Shown here: positions 8,751 to 50,978 of the stretch, piece after piece
How positions within the stretch are numbered: the stretch's first letter is position 1
Layout of the letters: each line of letters opens with the position of its first letter
Assembly: GCA_951406725.2 (NCBI GenBank)
Contig: OX597825.1
Coordinates: 38,998,001-39,062,000 of the forward strand
DNA length: 64,000 bases
Source of the DNA: Octopus vulgaris
Taxonomy: Eukaryota
Reading direction: 5' to 3'
Position numbers and translations under genes: made by a program
The notes under the pieces: model-generated
Databases searched by the model: none
Told to the model about the DNA's origin: nothing
What the model saw: the letters and a program-made list of their open reading frames with translations, nothing else

Positions 8751-8933
8751 CGGTTACCAGAAGGACCCTACTCTACCATCTTCATGAAACTGAACAGCCA
8801 TGTTCAATAGAATCCATGTGAATAACTTTCAATATTCATAGTATAATTTTGGCGGATTTCCTCAACCCAGTCGACGTCGGGCATTTCTGTTAGTATATAC
8901 ATATATACACACTCACACACACACACACACATA

Positions 8934-9321
8934 CACTTTACTCTTTACTCTTTTACTTGTTTCAGTCATTCGACTGCGGCCATGCCGGAGCACCGCCTTT
9001 AGTCGAGCAAATCGACCCCGGGACTTATTCTTTGTAAGCCCAGTACTTATTCTATCGGTCTCTTTTGCCGAACCGCTATGTGACGGGACGTAAAAACACC
9101 AGCATCGGTTGTCAAGCAATGCTAGGGGGACAAACACAGACACACAAACACACACACCCATACATATATATTCATATATACGACAGGCTTCTTTCAGTTT
9201 CCGTCTACCAAATCCACTCACAAGGCATTGGTCGGCCCGGGGCTATAGCAGAAGACACTTGCCCAAGATGCCATGCAGTGGGACTGAACCCGGAACCATG
9301 TGGTTGGTTAGCAAGCTACTT
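8934..9321 (-). mobile_element. OK-type SINE, B box, body and tail (head separated by the Tx1 insertion)
   Basis: Colinear with the intact copy at 50452-50900; tail ends in GAGTAAA repeats. Confidence 0.92.
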
Positions 9322-9552
9322 TATTTCATATAATTTGCCATTTAGGCATTTACAAAGAGGGGACAAACAAAGACAGACAAATATAAAGGGTGAAGTAGCT
9401 TAACACAGTTAAAATTTTCGAATAAAATTACGGATAAGATTATAAACAATGAGTTTTACGAAGACAATGTTTAAAAATATTATTAATGATCATGTCGAAG
9501 GACGGACACCCAGCCATCCGGGTTGAACCTTTACTTTTTGATCTGGTCACAC

Positions 9553-12500
9553 TTACCTTGTGCCAAACATACCCAACTTGCATGCCACAGGCTTCCATCT
9601 TTTCACAAACATATCTCGTGACAGACACATCTTCTCCAGCCTGATTTTGCTACTGAGGTGGTAACTAAAAAAGTTAATCAACCCCTGGCCGGAGACAAAG
9701 GTGCCTGTCACTATACCTTTCGTACGCGTCTTCCATACTGTTTCTACACAGAAAAAACAAGCCTTTCTTTCCCTGTTAAGGAAAGGAGGCGGCACAATCT
9801 CGATGATAGACTCAGCTGTACTCTTCCCATCACTGACAACAGTTGTTCAGCAAAAGCTATCAGTCCCGATAACTCCGGACACTCCGCGAATGCGTGCAAG
9901 ACGGTCTCCCTATCCTGCTCACATCGCGGGCATCTCGGCGAGACGGCACTTCCGTGCCTTGACAGCTTGTCGCGAACAGGTAAAGCGGCACGGAAACACT
10001 GCCAGGCCAGGGATTTCTGATAATTATCCAGATACCCCGGCCCGAACGTCCTCCGGAACAGGTTGACCAACTGATTTTCATCGTAGCCCAGGGTCTCCCC
10101 CAAGGCGTCTTCGGACTTAACCTCCACTAACCCGCTATAGACATCCGTGGTGGAACTCCTGTTGCCGGCGTTGCCCGCCCGAGAGAGTAGCTGGAGCGCC
10201 TGACGGCACTCCAAATGCCATTCACTCAGTTTAGTTCTCCGCTTGATCCATGCACCGATGTCCGTTAGGGATGTTAACTGGGGAAGGTAGAACCGGACGT
10301 GTGGTGACCACACCTGCTCTCCATCCAGGTAAAGCCAGAGGTGCCTCAACCTTAACGCGAGTTTTCGCATCCTCAGCCAAGGCATCCCTAGCCCACCCTT
10401 TAGCGGTTTCTGGCAGCAGACAGAGCGCTTTACAAGTGGCTTTCCTCCTTTCCACAAAAATCGGAAAAGGATTCTCTCCAACTTGTTCAACCACAAATCG
10501 GGGAAAGGCACCACGGTCAGACGGTAGGTGATTACTGATGCTATAAACATCTGCACCACCTCCGCCTTCCCTAGCAGGGGTAACGCCCGCCCAGACCAGG
10601 TCTGGGTTTGAGCGGTCACCTTGTTGGCCACCTCACTCCAATTTTTCTCAATCTGGAGGTCTGGCCCGAACCAGACTCCAAGCAGCTTAACAGGACCTTC
10701 AATCCAACGCCCTACGACGTTATTGGACGGCATCGGCTTGCCCCTCCAGGTGCCGAGTTGCAAACCGACCGACTTGTCCTTGTTAACCTTTGCTCCTGCC
10801 ACAGCCTCGTAGCTTTTGATGGCCTCTTCCACCACTGGAAGCTGGCCTTCGTCTGCCACGCTGATGGAGGTGTCATCCGCATACGCCGTAGCTCCTCTTC
10901 CACACCCCTAGTGCTTCCTAGTGCCTCCAACTTCCGCAGCAAAGGCTCAAGAGCCAATACGTAAAGGAGCGAGGACAGGGGACACCCTTGACGAACTGAA
11001 CGCTCGATCCTGAACGGCTTCGAAAAGAAACCGTTCATCCTGACTACAGACTCGATGTCGTTATACAAAGCAGCGATCCAACCTCGAAAGGTCGGGCCTA
11101 GGCCAGCCTCTCCGAGGACCGCCGCCAAGTACCGATGGTCGACCCTATCAAATGCTTTGGACTGGTCTAAATGTACCAGTGCTCCCCCTGCGCCAGAAAG
11201 CTTCCCCACCCTCTCTAAGGAGTAGCGTATAAGGTGGAGATTGTCGTGGATCGTTCTGCCAGGGATAGCGCACGTTTGCGCTTCCCCGACAAGTTTGTCC
11301 ACGGCCCGCGCCAACATTTTTGCTAGCACCTTGGCCAGAATCTTTAACTCTGTGTTCAACAGAGTTATGGGCCTGAAGTTCCCTCTTTCGTCCCCCTTGA
11401 TCGGGTCCTTCCTGATCAACGTCAGCACCCCCCGGCTCGCAGACTTGGGAATTCTCCCATTCTGCTGCCAGTTGGCGTAGGCGCTAGCCAGCAGGTGCCC
11501 GAACAAGTCTGGCATACTTTTATAAAATTCATAGGGCAGACCATCGAGACCCGGCGACTTCTCCCCGGGACACTTGCCCAACACCTCGATTAATTCCCCG
11601 GCTGTGATTGGCCCTTCACAGCACTCAGCCTCCCGTGTTGAGAGGCGCGGGCCACCAGACAGGAAGTCTCTAAGGGCCTCATCATGATCCAGCTTCCCGC
11701 ACCTCCCGAACAACTCGGCGAATTGCTTGTGAAGTGCCTCACACATCTCGTCCCGCTTCTTGATCGTGCATCCGTTTTCATCAACAAGAGACCCAATTGT
11801 GGCATCGCTGCCCACGCTGTGTTTCTATCGTACGGGCCCATCCGGCGACATTAATTCCCTCACGGCCCAATGCTCGTACTTTAACCCGAACTCTACATCC
11901 CTCATGTTTGGTTTTGAGGTGACGGTCCAATGCCGTTCTCGCCGCTAAAATGTGAGATGCAGAGCCCAACCTCAATTCCCTCCTCTAAGTTCTTAACTAG
12001 TTGCCCTTCTATTCTAGCCCTATCTAGTCTTAGTTGTTTACTAAATCTAATGGACTCGAATCGAATGGCTCTTTTGAGGGCGAACCACCACCGGTTATTT
12101 AACACGGCTCCGGTTAACGCCCTCTGCACAAACCCCTTAATCCGGTTACGGTATGCCTCGCGAGTCACAATAGACTTGTTCAGCTTCCAGTAGCCGGTTC
12201 CTATCTTAAGTGTGCTATCTATGTCCAGTCTACACTTGACCATTCTATGGCCAGTATAGGGCAACTGGACGAGCTGTGGACAACTAAAACTAGACTTATC
12301 TCTAGTTCTTATCACTATCCTGTCTAGATAAGACTTGAACCTTCCGTCGCCACTCACCCAGGTCCACTCTGGGACGTTCGGATGGTCAAGTCTGTAACGA
12401 TCTGCCAACTGAAACCGCTTAAGCAGATCCACGAGACGTGAGTTCACTTTCCTATAGATCGAGCCAACGCTATCGATGTGTACGTCAACGATAGCATTAA

Positions 12501-12924
12501 AGTCCCCTAATATCACTAAAGTCTTCGACGTCACGAGAAAGCCCTCTAGGCGCCGATAAAAGTCAGTTTGGAAATCTCTAGCACAAGGTGCATAGAGTCC
12601 GATCAACCTGAAGGCCTTACTGCTGTATGTCACATCAAGGACGACCAGCCCACCTTCTGGGTCTACATAGACTGTACTTGTCTGCAGAGCCAAGTCTTTA
12701 CGGATCAGTACCACTACACCCCCTCGCCCTCCGGTCTGGCCAGGAGACATGATTTTCTCGTAGCCATTCAGGAGAGGCGAGAAGGTTTGTAGGCTGTCCA
12801 GCTTGGTCTCTGTAGCAACCATCACATGTATATCATGTGATCTGAGGTCGTCGAGGAAACAAGCCTGCTTCCACTTCAAACTCAAACCACGCACATTTAA
12901 ACAACCAAGGTTAAGAGAAGCCAT
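9553..12924 (-). pseudogene. Tx1 ORF2 (APE endonuclease, reverse transcriptase, zinc finger), frameshifted
   Basis: LNVRGL, LGDFNA, SYLDRI, GYWKLN, KSPGLDGLPYEFY, NFRPITLLN, LDQSKAFDRVDH, VRQGCPLS, AYADD near 10870-10888, GGLG, CPRC..ETVLHAFAEC; spread over ORFs 11902-12924, 10712-11815, 9744-10859 and 9553-9795. Confidence 0.92.
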
Positions 12925-13201
12925 TACAAAAAGTAAAAGTTCTACTTACATTTCGTTTGGGAGGTTGGGGCCGACCTCACCACACATTTGTGGGCCCCTG
13001 CTTTCTCCTCCTTCTTCAGATAGTCCGGCAAGTTCGCGATATGCCGGATGGCGTTTGGTTGTCTGTCTTTTAATTGTTTGAACGTTGTTTCCGCAATCCA
13101 CACACATCTCTCGTTTCGATCTTTGTATTTGTTGTACAGTCTTGCTGTGTGATGCGGAACCACAATATCGTTTATGCATTTGTTTTGCGTGTCATATTCA
13201 A

Positions 13202-14374
13202 TTAATATGAGTTCATTTTTTTGTCTTCTTTTTCTGGGCCAGTTGAGCGGGATTTTTTTTTTCGTGTCTGTGGTGTGTCTTTGTTTTTATTATTTTTTGT
13301 AGGGCATGTGGACGGGGATGATGCACGAATTCTTTTACGAACTGTTGTAAATCCCCCCTCTGATACCTCCATGGTATCGTCTGGGGTAGCAATAGTTTGT
13401 TCAGTAGGCGCCGCAGTTTTTAAGGGGGTGGGAGGTTTTAATAATGTAGGGGTTTGTGAGTGCGAGGGCTGGGTTTTTTCTTCAGTTTGTTTTGGGGTTG
13501 GCACCGTAACAGCAGGAGTGCGACTTTTTGTTTTTGTAGGGGTAGGTGAGTTTGCAAGGGTAGGGATTTTTTTATTATCTGAGGGGCCTGGTGTCTGCGG
13601 TTTCTTTTGCTTGTCTGGACAGTCTACACGAATGTGGCCCTTTTTGCCGCAGGCGTAACAGGTGGGTTTTCGGCCTTCGACCTGTACCCTGAGGGCCACG
13701 TTCTCACCCACGAGCACCCTCTCAGGAAGGAGCTGCAGGTCCTCCGGTGTTCCTTGAATTATTATATTAATGTCTCACCCAAGCCAATATAGAGGGGCAG
13801 AGCATGTTACCTGTATTATTTTAATTTTGTCCGTCATTTTATATAACAGAGCGGCCACTACCTGTACCGGATCTACTTCCGGCGGTGCTTCTGCAATCCT
13901 GACCCGGGACGTCCTGCGTCCCCTATAGCTTGGGAAAAGTACCACCTCCTTGGTTTTTAGGGGATTCACAGAATGCCCGCGGGCCACCTCTTCCCCCGAG
14001 AAGCGGACATCCACAGTGCCATATGCCCGTCCCCTGGCAACGAACACAATGTCCTTCCAAATCGGGGACAGGTATTTCTCGATAGTATTTTTTTCAAAGT
14101 GTTTGAACCTTCTGCTTTGTGGACAGGTTTTAAACACTACGGTCCGCTTCCCGGTCTCCACGATACTACCGGAGGGTGATATTTTAACATCACCACCCTC
14201 CTCTTTCATTCTTTTAAATAGCTCGACGAGCTGATTGACATTGATGTCAATGTTCTCGGTAGCCACTGCGGCTACCGCAGAAAACTTTTTACTACAGTTA
14301 ACATTGTTCTCCTCAAGAGCACTATTTTCGTGAATAATCTCAATAGACATTATTCTGTTGAAATTAGACAACAA
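13202..14374 (-). pseudogene. Tx1 ORF1 (gag-like with CCHC knuckle), frameshifted
   Basis: ORFs 13775-14374 and 13202-13717; CYACGKKGHIRVDC followed by a Pro/Thr-rich region and GGFTTVRKR. Confidence 0.85.
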
Positions 14375-14749
14375 AAAAATTACGAATATTGGTTTCCCAC
14401 AAAACTAGGAAACCTATAGAAAGTTTTTCTTCCAAAGCAGTTCAATGAGTGGTAAAAAGCAGTTCAAAAATTTCAATTCCCGCCCCCATTCTGGGGAGGG
14501 GCACGAGAATAGTCTGGCAAGACTATATATAGTCACGTAGATAAAAAAAGCCACAGTGGCTAACAGTTCAACAGTAACAAATTATCCAATTATTCCCCGG
14601 TAAAACCGGAGAACAAGACAGTTAAACAACGTTCAAAAACAAATTTTCAGTAGTAAAATTCAACAATTAACAACACAGCAAAACTCTTACCGGGAAGAAA
14701 ACGCGGCCAAACCGTAGTAAGGTAAGCAAAGTCACTCTTGAGTCAGTGA

Positions 14750-14787
14750 GGTTAGCAAGCTACTTACCACACAGCCACTCCTGCGCC

Positions 14788-14790
<3 letters not shown>
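14750..14790 (-). mobile_element. 5' head (A box) of the OK-type SINE split by Tx1
   Basis: Reverse complement ATAGGCGCAGGAGTGGCTGTGTGGTAAGTAGCTTGCTAACC continues directly into 9321 and below once the LINE and one TSD are removed. Confidence 0.92.
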
Positions 14791-20975: not shown

Positions 20976-23900
20976 TGATTTTACTTCACGAATGCTTTTT
21001 AGCCACTGCCATTTGGTGAATGAGAGAGTTCGATGCAGCTGCCCTCATCTGCACCTCCTGCCGTGAAGTTGGTTTATCTGGGACACCTGACAGGAAGAGA
21101 TCCAGTTTTATTTTAAATACATCTGCATCCACACCATGCAGGTCTCTCAGGTTCTTCGGGAGGTTATTGAAGAGCTGTGGGCCTCTGAAGCCCAGGCTAT
21201 CACAGTATCTTGTCCTACATCTTGATGGCAAATTTGGAGTCCTTGGCACCATGCAGTGGCACCCAGTTCTGGCATTTGTGTAACTCTTGATGCCAAAGTT
21301 TGGGACAAGTCCTTCTAGGATCTTCAAGATGTATATTATGGCATATCTTTCTCGCCTACGCTCTAAGGAATAGAGTCTTAATCTCTTGAGTCTTTCCCAG
21401 TAGCTTATGTGCTGCACAGAGGCTAGGCTATCTTCTTCGTGTAGCTTCGTTGGATCGCATCAAGTTCTGTGATTAACTTGACACTGGATGGTGACCATAG
21501 CTGAGAGCAATAGTCAAAGTGGCTTAGGACAAGTGTCCTCCAGAGGACCATCATGGTTTCCTGGTCTCTTGTTCTAAAGGTTCTAAGAATCCATCCGGTC
21601 AGCCGCCTACATTTCATTGCCAATTTAGCAACATGCACATGAAAGATTGCATCATAACTCATGTAAATACCCAGGTCTCGCACTGATTGTGTCTCTGAGA
21701 TTGCAGTCCCTCCATGTCCATTGTATTTATTGGGTATTGCATTTAGTTTTGCATGCTGATAGCATAAAGCTTCAAACTTTTCAGCATTGAACTGCATGCT
21801 ATTCTTTTCAGCCCACTTGTATATTTTGTCCAGCTCACATTGCAGGTGCTTAGTGTCTTCAGGGTTCTGTATTGCCTGTGAAACTTTTGTATCATCTGCA
21901 TAACTTGTGATCATGGCTCTCTGCGTGGCTGAGGGCATGTCTGAGAGGGGCATTAGGAACAGTAGTGGTCCCAAAACAGTACCTTGCGGAACACCGCTCA
22001 CTATTTGCGTGTTAATGGAAATGGCCGCATTGGCTACTACCACCCGACTTCTATCCTTCAGAAAGTCATGAAGCCATTCTCCCAATTTTCCAACTATGCC
22101 AAGATCACGCAGTTTATGACATATCATTCCATGATCGACTTTATCAAAGGCCTTTGCAAAGTCGAGATATATGACTTCCACATTTGAGTGGTTCAGCAGT
22201 CGTTTCAGCACCCAGTCAAAGTGATGTAGGAGCTGAGTTAAGCAGCTTCTTCCTGGTCGGAAACCATGTTGGGTGTCGGGCAGCAAGTTATTTTCTTCAA
22301 GGAAGGTGATTAGTCTCCTTCTGACTATTCGTTCTATGACCTTGCTGATTTGTGAGGTCAGAGAGATAGGTCTGTAGTTCTTGGCCTCCGCTCTGCTACC
22401 TCCTTTATGAATAGGGCATATTTTACTTTCCTTCAGATTTCTTGGAAGTTTGCCAGTTGCAAGGAAGCTCTGAAAGGGGACTCTGCAGTGGTCTTGCTAG
22501 GACTCCCTCACATACTTTTAGAAGGATTGCTGAGAATCCATCGGGGCCAGTAGCTGAGTTTGTTTTCATTTCATCTATAGCCTTTATTACATCATCTTGC
22601 TTTATATTGATGTAATCAATCATCACTGCCTCTGATTTTATATCTGCAGTGGTAAAGAAGTCAGTTAGATTTCTAACTTGAAAATACTCTTGAATTGCTC
22701 ATTTAGTATTTCACTTATCCTCATTGGATTTCCTGTGAGTGTGCCATCCTTTTCAAGGAGTGGCCCTATCTTACAGTGCACCGTAGCTGTTTCTTTGGCA
22801 TACCTGTAGAAAGCTCTGGGGTTAGATTTTATGTTGTCTATAGCCCAGGCTTCTTTGTCTGCTCTTTCTATTTCATGAGAGAGTTCCAGACATTTTTCAA
22901 TTTCCAACAGTTTTATTTTCAGGCGGGACTTTTTACTGCTTTCAATTTGTTTGTTTAAGCGATTTGAAACTTTTGTACGCCGTCTCATTAGAATTTTCCT
23001 CTCTCTGGGGATTTTGTTCTTGTGTACAGTGGCCTTTCTCTCTGGGACACATTTGTAACATATGGCTTGCATTACAGACATGAATTGTTGAAGTTTCATG
23101 TCGATGTCTGGCGAGGAGAGATATTCAGGCCAGTTTTGTTTGAGGATCTCTTTCTCAATTTGTTTCCAGTTTGCCTTATGGAAGTTCAAGCTGGAAAGAT
23201 TCTGGGAGTTTCTTGTAGGCTGCATGTCCATGCTTTCCTTTGGTCCGTACATGGTCAGCTCTACCATGTTGTGATCCGAGAGTAGTGTCGAGATCCATAT
23301 TATTTGTGAAGCAGAGATCCAGTATGTTACCTGCCCTGGTTGGTTGGAGCATTACTTGCTCCATGTACAGAGTGTTGATGAGGTTCAGGAGGGACCTCGC
23401 CTGTCCTCGTTCACATCGTGTCATTCCTGGGAGAGAAAGGCCTTCGGGCCATCTGACATTGGGTAGATTGATGTCTCCTATAAGAAGTACACTTATGTGT
23501 TGTTCTAATGTGACTAGACCTTTTTCTATTTTTATAAGGCAGTCTTCAAACTTCCCTACATGGCTTGGGGCATCTGGAGGGCGATATGTAGCACATATAA
23601 CTACACCAAGTTAACTAATATGTACAATTAGTGTGTCACACAGCGAATTTGAGTATGACAAAAGGACCTGGGGTGTGAGGTCCTCGCGGATTTACATAGC
23701 AACTCCTCCATGACTCCTTTCTTTTCTGTCGGTCCGTAGTACAACATACTGTGGTATGTGTATTTCCGCATCTGCTATGTCCGGTTTCAGGTGTGTTTCC
23801 GTAAGTGCTATGCATAAGGCTTAATTGCATGCAACAATGTCTCTCAAGAACGGGATTTTTGTCCTGTTACTGAGTGTTAGCAGTCCTCTGATGTTCAGTA

Positions 23901-31149: not shown

Positions 31150-31383
31150 TATTTCTTTACTACTCACAAGGGGCTAAACACAGAGGGGACAAACAAGGAC
31201 AGACAAAGGGAATAAGTCGATTACATCGACCCCAGTGTGTTACTGGTACTTAATTTATCGACCCCGAAAGGATGAAAGGTAAAGTCGACCTCGGCGGAAT
31301 TTGTACTTCGAACGTAACGACAGACGAAATACGGCTACGCATTTTGCCTGGCGTGCTAACGTTTCTGCCAACTCGCCGCCTTA
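31150..31383 (-). mobile_element. OR-type (Meta-domain-like) tRNA-derived SINE with a Tx1-like 3' tail
   Basis: Reverse complement AAGGCGGCGAGTTGGCAGAA..CCTTTCATCCTTTCGGGGTCGATAAATTAAGTACCAG..TTTGTCTGTCCTTGTTTGTCCCCTCTGTGT..GAAATA; possible TSD CATACATATATA at 31138-31149 and 31386-31397. Confidence 0.85.
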
Positions 31384-31776
31384 TACATACATATATAAAC
31401 GGACAACTTCACACAACCACCACATACACAACACATACACAGGCATGATATTAAACTCACACTAAGAGTCTAGCTTGTACGCACATACCTACACATAGAC
31501 ACACATCCCTCCTTCACTTTCATTCTCCTGTCTTAGAAAGAACTTTTTCTTCACCGATTCCCTTCCGGTCATTTCAAAATGTAGCTGCACGTGAATCGTT
31601 TCTTAACTCTCTTTCCTTTCCTGAGCGTCTGCTAATATTTTGCATGTACCACTAGCTCACGTTGTTTTTAGGGTTTGTTCATCATTTTTTTGGGGTGGGT
31701 GGGGGTACTAGCATATATATATAAAGAAAATTACCCTCCCCCGACACAACAGTGTATATATATATATATATATATA

Positions 31777-49589: not shown

Positions 49590-50451
49590 GCAAATGTATA
49601 TATGTATATGTCTGTATCTATACAGTCATGTAAGCAGACACATAGGCAGGGAAAATAAAATAAGTATGCTGTAAAGATTGCTTAATTAGCAAAAACACTA
49701 TCCCGAGGTGAGACACACCTGATTGAATTGCGATAACGGGAATCATTTTATGTTCTGGAAGTAGACATTGATGGGATAACAAGAAATTATCTACTAATGT
49801 CAACACATTATTCTCTCGCCTTTCTCTACCTACAGCCGTACGAATGAAAATAGAAGAGAAAAATTAACTTTTCTAGCTAATTATGTTTAGCTGCTAACAT
49901 TGTCTTGAATCGATTTTATTCCGTAATGTTAAAAATTAGAAAATAATAATGATAATAATAATGATGATGATGGTGATGATGATGATGATAATGATGATGA
50001 TGATGATGATGATGATATAGAGTAACTCTTTGAATTTTCATAACGACAACAAGAAATAAAGTGAGACAAATTTATTTCAGAATTGTTATTCAGAAAAATT
50101 TATTATTTATCTCAGAATATCTTTAGATAATAGAACATATTTATATTAAATTTCAAAGAAAATGTATCCTATTCTTTGTCTACATAAACATTTTCTCACA
50201 GCAAGTTGGGTATCTTACATATAATAAAGCGCAGCTTGTGGCCTGACACGCTAAGGAAAGAATTCTAGCAGCAGAAAGAATAGAAGTGGATGACAGTGAG
50301 AGAAGTTGAAAAGCAGGTGAACAACGTTCAACTATTTTGCTTTGAAGAGGCTGATATTTTAATCCAAATAAAACTGCAAATTTTTATCGTAAATTGTACT
50401 TGATTGACCAGTCCCGCATACGCAGGCAAACACACACATATATATATTCCT

Positions 50452-50669
50452 TACTCTCTCTCTTCTACTTGTTTCAGTCATTTGACTATAGCCATGCTGG
50501 AGCACCGCCTTTAGTCGAGCAAATGGACCGCAGGACTTATTCTTTGTAATCCTAGTACTTATTCTATCGGTCTCTTTGGCCAAACCGCTAAGTTACAGGG
50601 ACGCAAACACACCACCATCGGTTGTGAAGCGATGTCAAGGGAGGGCGGCAAACACAGACACACAACCAT

Positions 50670-50725
<56 letters not shown>

Positions 50726-50898
50726 ACTTATATACGACGTGCTTCTTTCAGTTTCCGTCTACCAAATCCACTCAGAAGGCTTTGGTCGATCCTAGGCAAT
50801 GGTAGAAGACATTTGACCAAGGTTCCACGCAGTGGGACTGAACCCGGAACCATGTAGTTGGTAAACAAGCTACATACCACACAGCCACTCCTACACCT

Positions 50899-50900
<2 letters not shown>
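50452..50900 (-). mobile_element. Full-length OK-type tRNA-derived SINE with internal (TA)n(TG)n
   Basis: A box TGGCTGTGTGG, B box GGTTCAGTCCC, body and GGCGGTGCTCCAGCATGG..CTGAAACAAGT tail. Confidence 0.92.

Positions 50901-50978
<78 letters not shown>

Follow-up and report, generated by a model that had tools for sequence, protein, structure and literature searches.

In Octopus vulgaris, a young family of long interspersed elements (LINEs) lands almost always at a single bond, GGT/AAGTAG, which separates the A box from the B box of an abundant short interspersed element (SINE), probably by the mechanism proposed below; from sequence comparisons, we put the probability of this reading at roughly 0.8. 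One copy lies in the 64,000-nucleotide stretch analyzed here, referred to as the window (GenBank assembly GCA_951406725.2, contig OX597825.1, positions 38,998,001 to 39,062,000, forward strand). Targeting of other repeats is already known for such LINEs; a SINE as the target seems to be undescribed. The SINE head would thus be an added target class for sequence-specific LINEs, within a three-layer system made up of the SINE, the SINE-targeting LINE, and passengers that encode only open reading frame 1 (ORF1).

Insertion-site census and ORF1-only passengers

A first-pass annotation of the window had suggested that the LINE uses SINE heads as landing sites and had held that heterogeneous flanks around other copies would speak against this; the flanks proved uniform. 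The 2.8-Gb genome was searched with the last 299 LINE bases, flank excluded, which gave 395 candidates (40 scored, 30 fetched), and AAGTAGC follows the element end in 30/30 fetched copies, the window copy included. The exact 23-nt 3' end of the LINE has 114 genomic matches, with AAGTA next in 110. Besides the window copy, we inspected 100 copies (99 of the first 100 listed exact matches and one from the 299-base search), 97 of which occupy either this SINE site or its duplicate. Downstream of the element, 84 continue into SINE body by score and 4 by eye, with deletions (L073, L099, L146, and L153); 2 adjoin tandem LINE copies, 6 run into another element at the duplicated site, 1 follows a SINE head but leads into unknown DNA, and 3 are off-SINE. 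Among the last group, L139 used a site with a 16-bp duplication in a satellite that shares AAGTAGCTT, and L151 and L159 are fragments of 194 and 30 bp. Site and orientation are alike in nearly all copies. The chance of one insertion at this bond and orientation is about 1e-5, or at most 2e-4 on a generous SINE count, so that 97/100 excludes chance. For Tx1 families, more than 20% of flanks sharing one sequence type has served as the criterion of target specificity (PMC4494074); here the share is the same 97/100. Contigs from four DNA sequencing runs (organism labels A to D) span the whole element; no LINE-SINE junction was present among the listed contig pieces of these runs.

The 5' end is reached in 82 of the 100 copies, with a SINE head upstream in 66, the tail of another element in 15, and a diverged head in 1. 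Among the 18 5'-truncated copies, a SINE head stands at the break in 8, and the duplication is 16 bp in 4 and 7 bp in 2. These copies bear on the alternative that there is no targeting and that the LINE and the two SINE halves move as a single chimeric unit, in keeping with which part of the 5' duplication is apparently carried by the RNA (see below) and L094 has a doubled SINE head. However, since 5'-truncated copies keep both SINE head and duplication, the LINE-SINE arrangement is not a chimera, and we reject co-mobilization; SINE heads and bodies also differ from locus to locus, with different SINE subfamilies and 5'-shortened heads included, tandem insertions have no SINE head, and L139 made its 16-bp duplication in a satellite. 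We leave the chimeric unit next to no chance and retain insertion at a specific site. In L094 (G000:C4:94679221-94686221), the head is doubled at the 5' junction; some RNAs may carry a whole head, or the SINE may have been doubled beforehand.

The LINE family is young. Across 64 full-length copies plus that of the window, median divergence is 1.5% and the minimum is 0.17%, with the window copy 4.2% from the rest; ORF2 is open for at least 1,140 amino acids in eight copies, and both ORFs are open in L061.

Other elements share the site. Upstream of thirteen LINE copies lie elements whose tail carries a variant of the LINE's own terminal stem-loop, and within the sequence examined these upstream elements show ORF1 similarity in 10/13 and ORF2 in none. 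Complete passengers (L101, L133, and L158) measure 1,954, 1,984, and 2,228 bp, encode ORF1 only, and share the tail of the LINE; passenger ORF1 matches LINE ORF1 at about 25 to 50%. A degenerate tail pattern has 996 genomic matches, followed by AAGTAG in 653 and AAGAAG in 184 (837/996 together). In a sample of 30 tails, 23 were followed by AAGTAG, 5 by AAGAAG, and 2 by other sequence, and ORF2 was found in 4; among 30 AAGAAG loci, SINE body was scored in 17 and a diverged piece of ORF2 was present in one. Having ORF1, no ORF2, and a 3' tail in common with a partner LINE, the passengers resemble HAL1 (half-L1) elements; their ORF1 matches that of this LINE rather than pointing to descent from mammalian L1, as in HAL1 proper. 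By sequence, they are an analogue of HAL1 and not a member.

Several loci extend this picture. A chain of seven 2-kb passengers lies directly upstream of one LINE (G000:C1:223689319-223706788), and three LINE copies form a chain at G000:C9:2664555-2675451. In the 3' flanks of L065, L113, L114, L154, and L158, the 5' ends of ORF1-only elements contain the words CGCATG and CACGTG together with donor-like GTAAG/GTAGG sites, which may point to RNA polymerase II promoters and an intron in the 5' untranslated region (UTR).

The window copy and its host SINE

The nested insertion between SINE A and B boxes, with a target-site duplication, was confirmed. The insert (9322 to 14749, minus strand, 5,428 bp) separates the A-box-like from the B-box-like motif and is bounded by an exact 16-bp duplication, GGTTAGCAAGCTACTT, at 9306 to 9321 and 14750 to 14765, with no extension on either side. 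Deleting 9322 to 14765 restores a SINE colinear with a copy at about 50444 to 50909 (369/467 identities, 79%, E 2e-108). LINE and host SINE share the minus-strand orientation, with the A box preceding the element and the B box following it. The host SINE is putatively of the OK type, the label given to it in the first-pass annotation. All features lie on the minus strand:

8931 to 9305, minus strand: remainder of the host SINE on the 3' side, comprising the B box, the body, and a short repeat tail, from alignment with 50444 to 50909
9280 to 9290, minus strand: B-box-like GGTTCAGTCCC of the SINE head, from sequence
9306 to 9321, minus strand: AAGTAGCTTGCTAACC, the 16-bp duplication in its 3' copy, which is the original target; the putative first nick is at its 9321 edge
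9322 to 14749, minus strand: full-length APE-type LINE, likely Tx1 clade, 5,428 bp, from duplication, domains, and flank comparison
9336 to 9348, minus strand: terminal stem-loop TGCC-TAAAT-GGCA, a variant form of which is present in ORF1-only passengers
9393 to 9401, minus strand: tail motif AAGCTACTT, reverse complement of target bases 1 to 9; it occurs once, 80 nt before the 3' end, and is found in 95/100 copies; a candidate functional motif
9553 to 12924, minus strand: ORF2 (APE endonuclease, reverse transcriptase [RT], zf-RVT), with four frameshifts in the window copy
12942 to 14350, minus strand: ORF1 with a CCHC zinc knuckle; a stop and a frameshift in the window copy
14721 to 14731, minus strand: CTTTGCTTACC, similar to a 17-nt-type junction but lying within the 5' UTR; may be left over from a former leader
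14750 to 14765, minus strand: 5' copy of the duplication, its right part likely RNA derived in the family
14766 to 14787, minus strand: SINE head, 5' part, which includes A-box-like TGGCTGTGTGG at 14767 to 14777, from sequence and alignment

Pfam domains in the insert are zf-CCHC, Exo_endo_phos, RVT_1, and zf-RVT. The copy is full length yet broken, with ORF2 in five frame pieces and ORF1 bearing one stop and one frameshift, and its 3' end is GAAATA, without a poly(A) tail.

An ORF2 with an N-terminal APE endonuclease followed by RT (Pfam; best PDB matches to human L1 ORF2p, E 8e-67) marks an APE-type LINE of the L1 group, and the element has ORF1 upstream, no long terminal repeats, a target-site duplication, and 5'-truncated copies. 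The ORF2 score is 344 bits with zebrafish BAC82613, compared with 229 bits for human L1; we take BAC82613, which is listed only as ORF2p-like, to be a Tx1-clade element. The closest named ORF2 relative is from Argonauta, at 61 to 66% identity. No named Tx1 reference was among the relatives returned by homologue searches, cluster look-ups, and an atlas search. Judging by sequence, the LINE likely belongs to the Tx1 clade. In the limpet Patella caerulea (P0084 cluster), the locus tags of relatives run consecutively, which hints at tandem arrays and possibly at a separate target.

Target recognition and proposed mechanism

Target bases 1 to 6 are invariant in 84/84 in-register flanks. By exact counts, the genome holds 64,971 empty SINE sites of the AAGTAG type and 5,693 of the AAGAAG variant; the latter accounts for 0/84 occupied versus 12/48 empty sites (p 2e-6), and this older SINE variant is avoided by the current LINE family. 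Recognition of the hexamer alone is rejected (P 4e-55); in independent DNA, 11/66 AAGTAG sites fall in SINE heads, two of them being the window's own duplication, compared with 10/11 AAGTAGCTT sites. Because tandem and satellite insertions have other sequence upstream of the bond, the upstream side appears dispensable. The APE endonuclease likely reads about 7 to 12 bases downstream of the bond. That the endonuclease is the reader, we infer from Tx1L and R1 (PMC1950540, PMC4494074); Tx1L-EN nicks its target specifically in vitro (PMC1950540).

The host SINE head has A- and B-box-like motifs and ten bases in common with tRNA-Asp; in the interrupted head, neither ARAGORN nor Rfam called a tRNA. 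tRNA-Asp(GTC)-like genes share GTGGTAAGTA, the ten bases around the nick site (138 pattern matches; ARAGORN confirmed 1 of 3 tested), which raises the alternative that a tRNA gene is the selected target and the SINE a bystander absorbing insertions by number. Yet none of the 100 sites lies in a tRNA gene, and no match was found to a tRNA-Asp interrupted at GTGGT/AAGTA by an A-ending tail, a search of low power given 138 such sites versus 64,971 in SINEs. Base 6 is G in 84/84 flanks and T in tRNA-Asp, and passenger families sit in both AAGAAG and AAGTAG SINE variants. The tRNA-gene targeting that the first-pass annotation had offered alongside SINE targeting was thus not supported, and we regard it as highly improbable; a tRNA gene may have been the ancestral target of the LINE family. 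One tRNA call among the 100 emptied sites, a tRNA-Ser(AGA) gene just upstream of L129 (G000:C10:29428585-29435585), is not a target: it lies in the opposite orientation, the copy is 5' damaged, without its first 71 bases, and the 3' flank is SINE. tRNA-Asp-like genes also form tandem arrays with 158-bp spacing at G000:C5:51227262-51236040 and 51300915-51302067.

Variation between SINE copies makes the 5' junction of the LINE informative. In full-length copies with SINE body downstream and a target T at base 13, the 5' copy of the duplication has A in 21/21, and truncated copies with T13 and a full duplication retain T in 3/3 (L070, L124, and L146). Since the 5' duplication is not a target copy at any of these 21 informative sites in full-length elements, their RNA, like that of R2, is likely to have a target-like leader, which would start 6 to 10 nt inside the upstream duplication. 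The leader may be re-read from the parent's flank or may be a fixed part of the element; both fit. Junctions one base longer (17 nt) occur at 21/28 mismatched versus 7/40 matched targets (p 3e-6; 2 unparsed) and are independent of relatedness (31/62 versus 27.2 expected, p 0.31). Inheritance of 17-nt variants along the element tree, which is star-like and gives low power, is accordingly unsupported. The 5' end of the LINE matched no HDV-like (hepatitis delta virus-like) or other known RNA family, with only microsatellite artefacts returned.

We propose that the bottom strand is nicked at the GGT/AAGTAG bond and would there prime reverse transcription at the invariant 3' end of the element, and that the top strand would be cut 16 bp downstream. 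The full-length RNA would begin about 6 to 10 nt inside the upstream duplication, so that the end of the cDNA could anneal to the top-strand overhang and overwrite mismatching target bases, with a one-base slip where the match is poor. Each insertion would regenerate the site and so give rise to tandem chains. The roughly 2-kb ORF1-only elements, which have the terminal stem-loop in common with the LINE, likely rely on borrowed ORF2 protein and would, for that reason, land at the same bond. Insertion would abolish the RNA polymerase III promoter of the SINE; since the tails number about 1,000 and the empty sites more than 70,000, the effect on the SINE population should be small. The benefit to the LINE is likely a harmless, dispersed, self-renewing landing pad.

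Several observations weigh against this account. The inspected copies were picked by their exact 23-nt 3' end, so that older or 3'-damaged copies are underrepresented (the 299-base search had 395 candidates), and other flanks follow 159/996 tails, just 2 of which were sampled. No usable duplication was found in 12/18 truncated copies, and two tandem-array copies, L133 and L158, break the leader rule. Finally, bases 7 to 12 are conserved no better than at empty sites (18/504 versus 11/198 mismatches, p 0.29), so specificity beyond the hexamer is not localized.

A further possibility concerns how the site is chosen. The motif AAGCTACTT, present once per element, is the exact complement of target bases 1 to 9, a complementarity that we treat as a weak lead. 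It could be read as RNA-assisted targeting, in which a moderately specific endonuclease is aided by pairing of 3' read-through RNA with the nicked primer strand and of AAGCTACTT with the displaced top strand, so that this swap of strands would check about nine bases. Consistent with this, 95/100 copies carry the motif; AATAAA forms across the element-target junction; 3' junctions lack a variable A tail; L139, the only insertion that is clearly off-SINE and has a full duplication, shows precisely these nine bases at its site; and a second SINE with a similar tail and no motif is untargeted (0/22). By copies, the passenger motif also goes with the site variant: GCTA(A)C was found at AAGTAG versus AAGAAG sites in 20 versus 1, and GCTTC at AAGAAG versus AAGTAG in 14 versus 6 (p 1e-5). 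However, a tree of 31/55 tails (24 dropped) contains 2 supported independent contrasts (sign test p 1), so that independent coevolution of motif and site is not borne out, and one GCTA passenger family occupies AAGAAG sites. The motif is missing from at least three passengers; L088, L108, and L144 use the target site without it, and L079 was also missed by the motif search. Moreover, the untargeted SINE may rely on another partner LINE, and the motif is predicted to be able to form a hairpin with read-through RNA and might do nothing more. We therefore consider RNA-assisted targeting doubtful. Equally tentative is its broader form, in which site choice would be partly RNA guided, with a target-derived 5' leader, 3' read-through, and antisense tail motif pairing with both strands of the SINE site; the LINE and its guild of ORF1-only hyperparasites could then be retuned to new SINE subfamilies through a few RNA bases, rebuilding the landing pad at each jump. 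Recognition by the endonuclease remains our preferred reading.

Known systems and neighboring sequences

Transposons are among known LINE targets (PMC4640811). Within Tx1, Xenopus Tx1 inserts into Tx1D, crocodilian Tx1-Mar into Mariner-N4_AMi, Tx1-8_Crp and Tx1-4_AMi into LTR elements, and Tx1-9_AMi into Harbinger, with SINEU as a passenger (PMC4494074). The octopus LINE is like these in being APE type, in inserting sequence specifically into a mobile element, and in having nonautonomous passengers at the same target; it differs in that the target is a putatively tRNA-like SINE head, hit between the promoter boxes, and in that the passengers code for ORF1 and are not snRNA-headed SINEs. Keno targets U2, Kibi and Koshi target microsatellites, and other Tx1 families target U5 and 5S genes (PMC4494074). 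These likewise show Tx1-type targeting of a multicopy sequence, whereas the octopus target is neither a host gene nor a microsatellite but a dispersed parasite with more than 65,000 copies.

Drosophila R1 (PMC2718515) shares with the octopus LINE an APE-type endonuclease, an invariant 3' junction, a fixed downstream top-strand cut (14 bp in R1, 16 here), tandem arrays in the regenerated duplication, and proposed target sequence at the RNA ends. R1 differs in clade and in its 28S rDNA target, and ancestral-type R1 shows no RNA-derived 5' target sequence. For R2 RNA that carries target sequence from upstream of the site (PMC3774820), a cDNA-target heteroduplex has similarly been proposed to explain uniform 5' junctions and to propagate junction variants; R2, in contrast, has a restriction-like endonuclease and an HDV-like ribozyme, and no ribozyme family was found in the octopus LINE. 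HAL1 elements (PMC5753468) are, like the octopus passengers, nonautonomous LINE derivatives encoding only ORF1, but the octopus passengers are site specific, comprise several diverged families, and are chained with the autonomous element.

No LINE targeting a SINE head was found in the literature searched; Repbase Reports, Kojima and Fujiwara 2004, and paper supplements lay outside that search and could hold a prior description. The main text of a 2026 octopus repeat annotation (PMC13282606) gave 0 matches for "target" or "nested." Every insertion amounts to a natural experiment on LINE 5'-end joining, a poorly understood step, since the SINE copies that serve as targets are scattered and differ from one another; rDNA, the target of R1 and R2, is too uniform to offer this. 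As genomic evidence, the 21/21 overwriting of target bases speaks for heteroduplex priming by an APE-type element, and a young family with open ORFs makes questions about the endonuclease and the RNA ends directly testable.

Three neighboring sequences in the window touch on the same elements. A second SINE family (31150 to 31450, minus strand) has a last 60 nt that resembles the LINE tail (30 bp at 93%, a stem-loop, and a GAAATA end). The first-pass annotation had marked this SINE for the same flank comparison; it does not use the target site (AAGTAG in 0/22 flanks), and its mixed 3' flanks (22 copies) may reflect movement by a related, untargeted LINE. In the host SINE, an internal 23-bp stretch at about 9107 to 9129 is 91% alike to the LINE 3' UTR. 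At 21597 to 22475, minus strand, lies a distantly related RT fragment of another LINE (24% to the window ORF2).

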